Notes: generated by a model from the letters alone, not told the origin. A stretch of 4,983 bases of DNA from a virus (IMGVR_UViG_2778260995_000003:1-4983), one strand, 5' to 3'. Positions 627 through 4,121 are shown, counted from the stretch's first letter. Program-made: numbers and translations.

Positions 627-872
627 TTAAAGCGGTGTGATTTGCAACCATTCAGACGCACTAATCTCAAAGCGACGTCCGTTAGACAACTCGATAATCA
701 CGGGTAATTCACCTAGCTCCAGCCAGGCGTTTTTTTCCGTTGGAAAACTAACAGTAGAGATCTGGTAATCCGATACGCTTTCAGCCAGTCGGCAACTTTT
801 AAACACATCACCAAGGGCGGACGCGAAGAATTCATTTAGCTCATATTCAATCTGCTCTTTAGCTGCTGTCAT
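627..872 (-). CDS. Hypothetical protein (81 aa), last ORF before cos
   Basis: ATG at 872 to TAA at 627-629, on the same strand as the late operon. Codon choice looks typical for E. coli (GAA, AAA, CTG, GCG). The ribosome-binding site is weak (GATGAGACAGAAAC before the ATG). I recognise no similarity to any protein. Confidence 0.45.
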   Translation of the reverse strand: MTAAKEQIEYELNEFFASALGDVFKSCRLAESVSDYQISTVSFPTEKNAWLELGELPVIIELSNGRRFEISASEWLQITPL

Positions 873-1488: not shown

Positions 1489-1863
1489 TTATTGAGGACG
1501 CTGGAGTAATCCGTGCTGAGCGAGAGTTAGAGCAATGTCATAAGACCCTTGCCTGTCTTTATAGCAAGTTTTATCAACTAGCTCAGCTTTGCTAATTCCG
1601 GGTAAATCAAGAATCAGATTCGCAACTTCAATTGCCCTTTGGTACAACTTACCGATCTTTTTCTCCCCATGCTGTGGTTTTACATTCTTCAGATAACCGC
1701 TATCCGCCAGAGCGAGAAACGTTGCCCTTGGGCATCCCTTCTTTCTTGACGATTCGCTTTCTGTAACCTCTGCAACAGCTGCATCCCATGCATCACGAGG
1801 GGATATTGAATTATCAGCAACCAAATAATAAGCAATTAAAGCGGCGCGCGCGTATTGAGACAT
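1489..1863 (-). CDS. Hypothetical cargo (moron) protein, 124 aa (MSQYARAALIAYYLVADNSISPRDAWDAAVAEV...LTLAQHGLLQRPQ)
   Basis: ATG at 1863 to TAA at 1489. The supplied 141-aa ORF begins at a GTG at 1914 that overlaps the Rz 3' end; I prefer the ATG. The coding region is visibly AT-richer than the flanking R/Rz (about 43% vs about 50% GC by rough hand count). It has its own terminator and occupies the slot where lambda carries bor. No TM segment or lipobox; no similarity recognised. Confidence 0.55.
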   Translation of the reverse strand: MSQYARAALIAYYLVADNSISPRDAWDAAVAEVTESESSRKKGCPRATFLALADSGYLKNVKPQHGEKKIGKLYQRAIEVANLILDLPGISKAELVDKTCYKDRQGSYDIALTLAQHGLLQRPQ

Positions 1864-1901
1864 AATGCATCCATATACAAAAATCTTATGATAAGACTTT
1901 T

Positions 1902-2345
1902 CTAATATGAACACTGTGATCTCACATACTCTTGCAGACCATTCAATTGGTTAGTTACGGTTTCGATGCGCTCTCTGAGAACGAAATAATCCCGTTGAGC
2001 GGTGTCAGTAAGTCTGGGGCTGGCACCATCATCCACGTCGGAGGCGGCGGTGGTTTTATGCATGTCCGGACAGACTGCTTTGACGCGCAGCCACTTACGA
2101 CCAGCAAAAACATCAGCACGTAGACTTTCGATAGTCGCGTTAGCATCAGCAAGCTCCTTTGTGTATCTGGCGTCGAGTTCTGCTACATCACGTTGACGCT
2201 TCTGCATGTCAGCGATAGTGGATGCGGCTTTGTCGCGCTGCTCTTTGTAGGCGATGGCGTTATCACGGTAATGATTAACAGTCCATAACAGGCAGACGAT
2301 GATGCAGATAACCAGAGCGGAGATAATCGCGGTTACTCTGCTCAT
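1902..2345 (-). CDS. Rz: Spanin inner-membrane subunit Rz (i-spanin)
   Basis: [39 protein letters not shown]...[23 protein letters not shown]... closely matches lambda Rz as I recall it. It has an N-terminal TMD, and its ATG overlaps the R stop (ATGA). Confidence 0.93.
1955..2146 (-). CDS. Rz1: Spanin outer-membrane lipoprotein subunit Rz1 (o-spanin), embedded in the +1 frame of Rz
   Basis: [55 protein letters not shown]... has a lipobox (LVVSGC, Cys20), a penta-proline tract and a lambda Rz1-like C-terminus. ATG at 2146 is preceded by AAGGAG plus 7 nt. The supplied ORF start at 2152 is a TTG two codons upstream. Confidence 0.9.
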
Positions 2346-2818
2346 GCCTGATTCTCTCTGACCGTTCCGCCAGCTTCTTTGAATTTTGCAATCAGGATGT
2401 CAGTCTTATGCTCGAACTGACCATAACCAGCGCCCGGCAGTGAAGCCCAGATATTGCTGCAACGGTCGATAGCCTGACGGATATCACCGCGATCAATCAT
2501 CGGTAAAGCTCCACGCTCCTTAATCTGCTGCAGTGCAACAGCGTCCTGGCTTTTGGGAGAGAAGTCTTTCAGACCAAGCTGCTTACGGTAGGCATCCCAC
2601 CAACGGGAAAGAAGCTGGTAACGTCCGGCGGCTGTTGATTTGAGTTTGGGGTTTAGCGTGACAAGTTTGCGAGGGTGATCGGAGTAATCAGTAAACAGTT
2701 CGCCGCCAACAATAACATCATAACCGTGGTTACGTGTCGGTTGTCGCCCGTTATCCGTTCCTTCTGACCAAGCTAACATATCGAGGAAGGCTTTACGCTG
2801 AGGATTAAGATTTTGCAT
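2342..2818 (-). CDS. R: Endolysin, lambda R-type lytic transglycosylase (158 aa)
   Basis: [62 protein letters not shown]... is near-identical to lambda R from residue 7 onward. The catalytic Glu19 in the AWSEGT motif is present. Its ATG at 2818 overlaps the holin 3' end by 14 nt. Confidence 0.95.
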
Positions 2819-3110
2819 TTTTCACCCCTGTCAGTCGTTCCCAGAAGTACGTCAGTGCAACCGAACCCATCGCACCACTAATCCCCGCTGTCGCGAGAAT
2901 CATGTAAATACTGAATCCACTTTCGATGCTGATCAGGCCACCAATAACACCGGTGAATCCTGATACCACTATTTGAGCCAGAGCATTTATCCAACTCCAC
3001 GTTGCTTTACTCTGCTTCACATCTATCAGGTAGCGGACCAGACCGCCCCAACCTGCGATGATCAGCAAAACGAGCCAGAACGCTCCGGCAAGGCTCTCTT
3101 TTTCGTGCAT
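2805..3110 (-). CDS. Holin, class I-like topology (three predicted TMDs, charged C-terminus); not lambda S
   Basis: The gene lies immediately upstream of and overlapping R. The protein MHEKESLAGAFWLVLLIIAGWGGLV...WSWINALAQIVVSGFTGVIGGLISI...[36 protein letters not shown] has three hydrophobic spans and a basic tail. ATG at 3110 is the only ATG start; an in-frame TTG at 3122 adds MAIH. It does not align with lambda S as I recall it. Confidence 0.7.
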   Translation of the reverse strand: MHEKESLAGAFWLVLLIIAGWGGLVRYLIDVKQSKATWSWINALAQIVVSGFTGVIGGLISIESGFSIYMILATAGISGAMGSVALTYFWERLTGVKNAKS

Positions 3111-3224
3111 ATGAATAGCCAATGTTTCGCCGCCGACAAAAGGCCGGGACGTTAAATGTCAGAAATCAGGCTCACGGGGTAATTTAACGACAAAGCACGG
3201 AGTTTATGCTCCCCGCAAGCCTGG

Positions 3225-3250
3225 AATAAAAAAGCCAGCATGTAGCTGGC
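3225..3250 (-). terminator. Intrinsic terminator in the late-operon leader (second of two)
   Basis: Minus strand reads GCCAGC-TACAT-GCTGGC followed by TTTTTTATT. On the plus strand the hairpin is followed by AACAGAGGG, so it is minus-oriented. Confidence 0.55.
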
Positions 3251-3327
3251 AACAGAGGGTTAAGCAATATCAACTCAACAGCTGAAGACACCCTGGCTGG
3301 GGTAGGTTGGAAGGCTACTCACCGTCC

Positions 3328-3364
3328 AGAAACAGAAAAGCCCAAGGCTTAAAACCTCGGGCTT
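3328..3364 (-). terminator. Intrinsic terminator in the late-operon leader (first of two; tR'-like position)
   Basis: Minus strand reads AAGCCCgAGG-TTTTAAG-CCTtGGGCTT (6+3 bp stem with one mismatch) followed by TTCTGTTTCT. It lies about 50-80 nt downstream of the candidate late promoter. Confidence 0.5.
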
Positions 3365-3419
3365 GAATTTGGATTACTGCCAGTGCGTACAACATTGGCA
3401 AAATATCAGATTTACATGA

Positions 3420-3448
3420 AATATATGCTTTTTAATCCAGTTTTGCAA
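3420..3448 (-). promoter_or_regulatory. Candidate sigma70 late promoter (-35 TTGCAA, 17-bp spacer, -10 TATATT) straddling the stop codon of the Q-like gene
   Basis: Minus strand reads TTGCAA-AACTGGATTAAAAAGCA-TATATT. A -10-like GATATT (plus 3402-3407) sits about 5-15 nt into the predicted transcript, where Q-type systems have a sigma-dependent pause element. This is motif reading only. Confidence 0.4.
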
Positions 3449-4121
3449 TATTTTGCTGTGAAAATGTCGCCTTTTGTTTTGAACGTGTTCTCGTTACAAG
3501 CAATAAAGCTTCGCTATCAAGCTGTAGAAAAATGTGCTTCATTGCAACCCAGCGTTCAGTGAATGTCTCAGACCAGTTTTTTGATGTCACTCCCACCAGT
3601 GATGCCAGTTCCCGGTATTCATAAGTCTCACGTCCAGCCAGCTCGCTCTTCACATCCTGTGCTGCCAGCCAGATCAACTTCTTTAAGCGTTCCAGTGTCT
3701 TACTGGCAATTTTTCTTGTACCTAACAGAGTCTTAAACTCGTTCCATGCCCACTGCGTTATGGCAACCTGATGCTCCCAGCGAACACTTTCGCTGTAACT
3801 CCACAGCAACCACGCTTTCTGATGTTCTTCGAGAGACAGAACCGCGCGGCGCCATGAAGATGTTGAGAACTCAACCTGGCTGACCAGTGCAATGGATGGA
3901 CCTTTTGCGTACGACTGCTTACCGGAAATCGGCGGATTATCCAGCGTAATCATCCTGCCAGTTACCTCATCCAGAATGCGCGGCTTCTTTCGTTTGTAAG
4001 TACCAGTATCAAATTGTGCATGCTCCAGCCAGGCTTCAAGCTGGCCTTTCGTTGCTCCGCTCAAATCAGCGGTAGCCACAATGAGTTGCTCGCGGACATA
4101 CTGTAAATATTGGGTATTCAT
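3432..4121 (-). CDS. Putative late-gene antiterminator (Q-like by position, 229 aa; not lambda-Q type)
   Basis: ATG at 4121 is preceded by AAGGAG plus 7 nt. It sits between ylcG/rusA and the promoter-terminator leader ahead of the lysis genes, which is the Q slot in lambdoid phages. The C-terminal segment YEYRELASLVGVTSKNWSETF looks like a helix-turn-helix. The sequence does not resemble lambda Q as I recall it. That this is a real CDS I rate about 0.9; the confidence given here is for the Q function. Confidence 0.55.
   Translation of the reverse strand: MNTQYLQYVREQLIVATADLSGATKGQLEAWLEHAQFDTGTYKRKKPRILDEVTGRMITLDNPPISGKQSYAKGPSIALVSQVEFSTSSWRRAVLSLEEHQKAWLLWSYSESVRWEHQVAITQWAWNEFKTLLGTRKIASKTLERLKKLIWLAAQDVKSELAGRETYEYRELASLVGVTSKNWSETFTERWVAMKHIFLQLDSEALLLVTRTRSKQKATFSQQNIAKLD

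Follow-up and report, generated by a model that had tools for sequence, protein, structure and literature searches.

A predicted phage 82-type late-gene transcription switch in a lambdoid prophage, its IsrJ-like leader RNA and a terminator element linked to the lysis cassette

Introduction

Lambdoid phages use Q antiterminators of three unrelated families, one of which, PF06323, is the Q82 family (PMC9388147). Q21 and Q-lambda form a closed nozzle, and the mode of Q82 was left undecided in the same literature (PMC9388147). Phage 21 Q and AlpA of Pseudomonas aeruginosa are structurally defined Q-like antiterminators, and a published AlphaFold reading of 82Q describes an N-terminal ring together with a C-terminal helix-turn-helix (HTH; PMC9371919). 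Q82 has been used in in-vitro work on sigma70-dependent pausing and antitermination, and terminator read-through that depends on the Q-binding element (QBE) and on the pause was shown for the phage 82 protein, which is 97% identical to the Q protein studied here. [quoted passage not shown]

The initially transcribed region of 82pR' is described position by position. The wild-type transcript starts with AAA, the -10-like element is near consensus with an extended -10, a discriminator-like GCC occupies +15-17, the pause occurs at +25/+26 with U at +25, no G follows the pause, and insertion of one base at +18 places a G at the pause site (PMC5001585); position +24 of 82pR' is therefore G. The terminator t500, which has often served as a model, also comes from phage phi82; GC interrupts its U-tract, and its reported in-vitro efficiencies are 31% and 68%. 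Short RNAs are described from two related settings: IsrJ of the Salmonella prophage Gifsy-1, a detected RNA of ~74 nt that is 'highly transcribed in all conditions', and StxS, a short terminated pR' transcript of Stx phages in lysogens.

Here, we analyzed a stretch of viral DNA of 4,983 nucleotides (IMGVR_UViG_2778260995_000003:1-4983), referred to as the window, for which a sequence-only reading had proposed a Q-type antitermination module. We are highly confident that the region is the switch for late-gene transcription in a lambdoid prophage of the phage 82 type. This switch, consisting of Q82, promoter, pause site and terminators, is already known, and the locus is a real but ordinary example of it in an E. 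coli prophage. The result is thus the correct annotation of a textbook regulatory module, which adds nothing on Q82 itself and illustrates that a Q-type switch can be recovered by reading raw sequence. Its modest added value lies in the identity of IsrJ, in an element formed by the second terminator and an adjacent stem, and in a model of Q82 that stands beside Q-lambda and AlpA.

Results

Gene order of the window

The minus strand encodes all genes of interest, and they follow the order that is canonical for lambdoid phages:

4943-4614, minus strand: ybcO-like nuclease gene
4680-4255, minus strand: RusA gene
4258-4118, minus strand: YlcG gene
3432-4121, minus strand: Q gene, phage 82-type antiterminator of 229 aa plus stop (ORF; PF06323; PHROG 304; CAA63332, 97%)
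3431-3123, minus strand: non-coding leader, 309 bp
2805-3122, minus strand: LydA-type holin gene, the first late gene (PF16083, E=8e-22; PHROG 785, holin)
2818-2342, minus strand: lambda-R-like lysozyme gene
2345-1902, minus strand: Rz gene
2152-1958, minus strand: Rz1 lipoprotein gene, within Rz in another frame (PF06085, E=3e-15)
1489-1914, minus strand: gene for a DUF6979 protein (PHROG 5039, unknown function)
627-872, minus strand: 81-aa ORF without a family match
362-3, minus strand: gene for the terminase small subunit Nu1, N-terminal 120 aa (PF07471, E=9e-75)

The window thereby extends from the nin region across the lysis genes as far as the beginning of the packaging genes. Its order, ybcO-rusA-ylcG-Q-pR'-holin-lysozyme-Rz/Rz1...Nu1, is that of phage 82 and lambda, and the genes upstream of Q (rusA and orf45/ylcG) are alike in phage 82. 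Q sits between the nin/rusA region and the lysis genes, directly upstream of the late promoter, as it does in the phage 82 entry X92588 and in phage PhiR47_2. The closest RefSeq genome has an identical gene order and names the protein 'bacteriophage antitermination protein Q'; its leader carries no annotation. The holin may start with TTG at 3122 or with ATG at 3110, the latter being used by RefSeq in this closest genome. Within the leader, there are only small ORFs of <=35 aa, mostly with non-ATG starts, and the indels found in homologs are not multiples of three. All parts of the Q-type module that had been read from the sequence were recovered on the minus strand in their proposed places.

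The antiterminator closely matches phage 82 Q

The 229-aa protein matched PF06323 with 316.8 bits (E=1e-94; cut-off 25) over residues 4-220 of 229, and among the PHROG families it matched PHROG 304, 'anti-termination protein Q-like'. PF06323 was the sole family returned by the Pfam search, with neither PF03589 (lambda Q) nor PF06530 (phage 21 Q) among the matches, so that this search assigns the protein to the Q82 antiterminator family. Compared with phage 82 Q (CAA63332), 221 of 229 residues are identical (97%, eight substitutions), and the gene is 96% identical at the DNA level to the Q gene in X92588, an entry that ends at the Q stop codon, where the comparison stops as well. Judged by these alignments, the protein is essentially phage 82 Q. 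The Q protein of Gifsy-1 (AntQ) is 70% identical. Clustered at 90% identity, relatives form about 2,800 groups, almost all of which carry the annotation Q; at 50% identity, there are only 176.

The protein had been said to be unlike lambda Q, and indeed no sequence similarity between the two was detected (BLASTP E=11). The protein of the window contains no cysteine, and a zinc finger of the Q-lambda type is therefore not possible. The further suggestion that the factor might belong to a poorly characterised antiterminator family had to be given up, given the 97% identity to phage 82 Q, the membership in PF06323 and the published in-vitro work on Q82.

For the structure of the protein we relied on modelling. 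Searches of the PDB by sequence, with the protein as well as with the family profile, gave no match, and no experimental structure of Q82 was found. An AlphaFold model was built from an alignment of 60 sequences with identities down to 17%. It contains HTH-like helices at residues 169-176 and from 180 onward with pLDDT above 90; the N-terminal segment 21-80 is of low confidence (pLDDT 52-70). The best structural matches of the model were Q-lambda and AlpA. By this confident model, Q82 would be grouped with Q-lambda and AlpA in structure, which agrees with the published prediction. A permissive Pfam scan of the C-terminal third returned no HTH family, its sole extra match being DNA_meth_N (E=0.099), so that the HTH-like segment proposed in the sequence-only reading rests on the structure model: the helices are confidently predicted there, but a match to an HTH family did not materialize.

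Late promoter, Q-binding element and pause site

The end of the Q gene and the beginning of the leader carry the following features:

3443-3448, minus strand: pR' -35 hexamer TTGCAA, within the last Q codons (scan; TTGC invariant in 34/34 loci)
3426-3444, minus strand: -35/-10 spacer with the putative QBE, which also encodes ...K L D stop
3420-3425, minus strand: pR' -10 hexamer TATATT (scan; 17-bp spacing in 34/34 loci)
3413, minus strand: predicted transcription start +1, seven nt downstream of the -10, transcript AAA...
3400-3408, minus strand: sigma70-dependent pause element, extended -10-like TGaTATTTT, +6 to +14 (conservation; published 82 element)
3397-3399, minus strand: discriminator-like GCC, +15 to +17, needed for the pause (published 82pR' +15-17 GCC)
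3388-3389, minus strand: predicted pause positions +25 (U) and +26 (A) (published pause; window sequence agrees)

A sigma70-like promoter that overlaps the Q stop codon had been predicted and is present: TTGCAA and TATATT are separated by 17 bp, and the stop codon TAA (3434-3432) lies inside this spacer. With +1 set at 3413, which we infer from the distance to the -10, the transcript begins AAAUCUGAUAUUUUGCCAAUGUUGUA, and the alignment to the Rfam isrJ model begins close by, at 3416. With this start, the window fits six of the six published facts on positions in 82pR' (PMC5001585). The probable identity of the leader with that of phage 82 is drawn from these six positions and from phage PhiR47_2, which is 98.5% identical. 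Promoter-like sites as such are not enriched in the window (5 found vs 6.4 expected), and the decisive evidence for the module, as read from the alignments, is its conservation. All 34 related loci, whose Q proteins are 59-78% identical to that of the window, retain the -35 and the -10 at a spacing of 17 bp, together with the start region and the pause element.

Within the early transcript of these loci, T+4, G+7, A+8, T+9, A+10, T+14 and G+15 are invariant, which gives the pattern TGnTATnnT, and C+16 and C+17 are nearly so. The pause hexamer is accordingly TATTTT at +9 to +14 (3405-3400), with TG at +6/+7. The -10-like element that had been read as GATATT does exist in the early transcript, but its register was two bases off: GATATT (+7 to +12, 3407-3402) was rejected as the pause hexamer, as it puts the variable +12 at the T-7 position. 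By its sequence, the element belongs with the sigma70-dependent promoter-proximal pause elements. The combination expected of a cognate cis site, a QBE in the spacer plus a pause element with the pause at +25, is likewise present at the sequence level only. In lambda, the corresponding pR' pause lies at +16.

The exact bases of the QBE can be assigned only by analogy to 82pR', and the assignment in the window is therefore putative. Gifsy-1 isrJ retains the same spacer sequence at a place where no Q gene ends any longer, which argues for its conservation as a DNA site. Among the window and the loci L005-L043, the spacer/QBE region occurs in four sequence versions, AACTGGATTRAA, AAGTCAATTAAA, AAATGAACTAAT and AACCGAACTGAA.

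The first terminator and an IsrJ-like leader RNA

Downstream of the promoter, the first part of the leader contains two hairpins:

3377-3401, minus strand: leader hairpin 1, +13 to +37 (fold; first helix of the Rfam isrJ model)
3328-3364, minus strand: terminator t1, stem +50 to +76 (3364-3338, 12 bp) and interrupted U-tract UUUUCUGUUUCU
3331-3413, minus strand: short leader RNA of about 80 nt, IsrJ-family homolog expected in lysogens (Rfam isrJ; predicted 3' end)

Two tandem terminators on the minus strand ahead of the lysis genes had been claimed, and both were found. Like intrinsic terminators, t1 and the downstream t2 each consist of a GC-rich hairpin followed by a U-rich tract on the transcribed strand, and terminator-like sites are enriched in the window (15 found vs 4.7 +/- 2.9 expected). 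Taken as a whole, the leader forms a much more stable fold than shuffled sequences do (z=-5.0). The t1 stem alone reaches -17.8 kcal/mol, and the leader RNA from +1 to +86 reaches -27.6 kcal/mol (z=-4.15). MAFFT put the variable stems out of register, and per-sequence folding and covariance-model realignment were used instead. In this way, every one of the 34 related loci was found to fold a terminator between about +45 and +80, with stem sequences that differ and co-vary, and hairpin 1 turned out to be kept across loci in three different sequence versions. Hairpin 1 overlaps the end of the pause element and can form only after the polymerase has left the +25 pause.

Sequence similarity between Q82-type loci stops right after the t1 U-tract. 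In several of them (L010, L023 and L035), t1 is followed by the downstream flank of lambda tR', and t1 is therefore the equivalent of tR'. The t1 U-tract is GC-interrupted, as described for t500. Together with the t500 flanks, which would match those of t1, this suggests that t1 is probably the native form of t500. In some loci, tRNA genes begin within about 10 nt of the t1 U-tract (L012 3289-3440, L017 3274-3425, L022 3289-3360, L030 and L031), the position at which Stx phages and Gifsy-1 carry tRNAs.

The Rfam isrJ model (RF01393) aligned to the window at 3416-3337 over its full length (1-75) with 29.3 bits (E=0.017), which is below the gathering threshold of 37. It scored above the threshold in 12 of 19 related loci (41-94 bits), with a start that is always 19 nt after the last Q codon; Gifsy-1 isrJ itself scores 100 bits. 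Copies were located, for example, at 2534-2608 in L002 (Gifsy-1) and at about 3206-3280 in L021, L012, L017 and others. The segment that comprises the promoter with its spacer, the start region and the pause element is common to Gifsy-1 and the window (47 bp at 91.5%), as is the two-hairpin layout that ends in a terminator, but the two differ in the version of hairpin 1. They also differ in the position of the promoter: in Gifsy-1, pR' with its leader (isrJ) lies about 840 bp downstream of Q, whereas it directly adjoins Q in the window. From these alignments, we conclude that the Salmonella sRNA IsrJ is the leader RNA that a Q82-type pR' yields upon termination, and that the predicted RNA of the window is a divergent IsrJ homolog rather than a scored Rfam member. 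This origin explains the constitutive expression of IsrJ. No statement of this identity was found in the literature examined.

In Gifsy-1 (L002, 1685-1883 and 2501-2620), Q is separated from its promoter by an isrK-orf45-anrP insert. This insert matches the Rfam families C4 antisense RNA and c4-a1b1, which suggests that a P1 immI-like module may have been inserted between Q and its promoter.

The relationship to IsrJ raises the question of whether the RNA itself is the main product in a lysogen, namely a trans-acting, Hfq-binding sRNA that regulates host genes and whose extent is partly defined by the terminators. The alignment to the isrJ model covers its full length and reaches from the start site to t1, related loci exceed the curated threshold at the same offset, and in Salmonella IsrJ has been detected as an RNA of ~74 nt and has an invasion phenotype. 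Moreover, the structure of hairpin 1 is conserved although pausing does not need it, and StxS provides a precedent for a pR' leader RNA that acts in trans. StxS resembles the predicted RNA of the window in being a short terminated pR' transcript of lysogens, and it binds Hfq; however, it stems from a phage with a different Q family, is a different RNA, and is processed from a longer precursor, and it is StxS for which the function was shown. The window copy, in turn, stays below the Rfam threshold (29.3 vs 37 bits) and deviates in its version of hairpin 1, not even IsrJ has a known target, and the conservation can be explained by the pause element at the 5' end and by termination at the 3' end. 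We therefore consider a regulatory RNA as the main product unlikely. In lambda, the counterpart is the 6S RNA of 194 nt, compared with about 80 nt here.

The second terminator is part of an element linked to the lysis cassette

The remaining part of the leader is occupied by a second terminator and a long-range stem:

3225-3250, minus strand: terminator t2, stem 3250-3234 (+164 to +180), GCCAGC/GCUGGC, then UUUUUUAUU
3167-3223, minus strand: long-range stem after t2, 3223-3211 with 3179-3167 (13 bp), enclosing a small hairpin
3156-3260, minus strand: conserved ~105-nt element comprising t2 and the long-range stem (nhmmer; covariance model R1)

The t2 stem has 6 bp, 5 of them GC, and folds with -11.9 kcal/mol (z=-4.5); across 31 copies, all six pairs show double-sided changes. 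The long-range stem begins four bases after t2 (-27.8 kcal/mol, z=-4.7), with compensatory changes in 10 of 11 modelled pairs and 97% of the cells paired. For the whole element, 95% of the cells in the alignment pair and 16 of 17 pairs are changed on both sides. The alignment was fitted to the structure, which favours the structure; in controls, none of 500 shuffles reached the observed values, and shifted controls collapsed. A terminator-like match at 3217-3196 is the inner part of the long-range stem and was not counted as a terminator.

The covariance model R1 gave 84.5 bits for the window. Of the 41 other sources to which it was applied, 29 had a copy on the plus strand, and six of these were outside its seed. 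Rfam contains no family for the element, and neither nhmmer nor R1 detected a copy in lambda, which sets lambda apart from the window. We had considered t2 as a look-alike of lambda tR', which was rejected: t1 is the tR' equivalent, and lambda lacks t2. Copies occur in lambdoid phages with three different Q types, such as at 2017-2123 in L003 and at 1976-2083 in L004. The element is present in most genomic loci of the Q82 type. By its distribution, t2 is part of a mobile element that is linked to the lysis cassette regardless of the Q family, and two terminators before the lysis genes are common in lambdoid prophages.

As an alternative, t2 may not mainly be a backup for pR' but sit in a separate ~105-nt lysis-cassette module, which would insulate the holin gene from any upstream transcription, including that of morons or tRNA genes acquired after t1, with the adjacent long-range stem processing, stabilizing or tuning the lysis mRNA upon read-through by Q-modified polymerase. 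The end of similarity among Q82-type loci after the t1 U-tract fits this proposal, as does the variable distance of the element from pR' (+143 to +738), with ORFs or tRNAs between t1 and the element in some loci. The P22-like UPF_BP1 and mEp237, which belong to different Q families and have a t1-like hairpin of their own, also carry the element, always just upstream of holin, and both helices co-vary strongly. In the window, however, t1 and t2 are about 87 nt apart and no insert separates them, which makes the two roles indistinguishable here, and lambda itself does without the element. On balance, we give this alternative a substantial chance that falls somewhat short of even, and retain t2 as a backup of t1 in the pR' leader. 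Two terminators had been expected to give tight silencing in the lysogen. A backup contribution of t2 is plausible because t500 is only 31-68% efficient in vitro; the shares of t1 and t2 in silencing are what we infer.

More speculatively, lambdoid lysis cassettes may possess in the ~105-nt element (3260-3156) a new type of cis-regulatory RNA module, more than a spare terminator, which could serve both as an insulator and in mRNA processing, stability or translation and is swapped between phages independently of the Q family. At the same time, the ~80-nt RNA from pR' may act as an IsrJ-type riboregulator of wide occurrence, shared by the ~16% of complete E. coli genomes that contain the module. 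We offer this combined proposal as doubtful but conceivable.

About 14 nt upstream of the t2 stem, a second TGATATTG motif resembles the pause element (3265-3273, minus strand, +141 to +149). The motif is not kept in UPF_BP1, and chance probably accounts for it.

A model for late-gene control and its distribution

Taken together with the phage 82 literature, from which the pause, the dependence on the QBE, the effect of NusA and antitermination are adopted by analogy, the locus would operate as follows. The promoter pR' (3448-3420) would fire constitutively, and RNA polymerase still carrying sigma70 would be caught by TGaTATTTT (+6 to +14) and pause at +25/+26. In a lysogen, where Q is absent, the polymerase would leave the pause, stop at t1 (presumably at about +82) and release the IsrJ-like RNA of ~80 nt. 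Transcription leaking through t1 would be halted at t2 (about +188), so that holin, lysozyme, Rz/Rz1 and, further on, Nu1 stay silent. [quoted passage not shown] The exact start, the points of termination and the way in which t1 and t2 share the work are predictions in this scheme.

The module is conserved across Enterobacteriaceae. Of 5,426 complete E. coli genomes, 867 (roughly 16%) contain the 328-bp promoter-leader segment, among them O157:H7 and O25b:H4 strains; 790 of the 867 copies are full-length, mostly with 95-99% identity. In the sequenced phage PhiR47_2, this segment is 98.5% identical. From the identity of IsrJ, RNAs homologous to it are thus to be expected in many lysogens of E. 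coli, O157:H7 and O25b:H4 strains among them.

Among the E. coli prophages that carry this module, many are defective, as exemplified by DLP12-like regions, and the present prophage might be defective overall, about 5 kb of it being visible. The module could then be an inert remnant in a cryptic prophage that controls nothing any more. We regard this as quite improbable: the genes of the window, ybcO through Nu1, are without exception intact and canonically arranged, the module is 96-98.5% identical in the sequenced phage PhiR47_2, and the cis elements are unmutated compared to the family consensus.

Several minor features lie downstream of the lysis genes. Two accessory genes, the DUF6979 gene and the 81-aa ORF, are located between Rz and cos, and same-strand terminator-like hairpins at 1469-1453 and 1157-1138 are sites that a Q-modified polymerase would need to read through. 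A lambda-like cos region (about 364-600) precedes Nu1. Rfam microRNA matches at 382-448 were dismissed as spurious; they coincide with a hairpin (384-446) upstream of Nu1 in the cos region.
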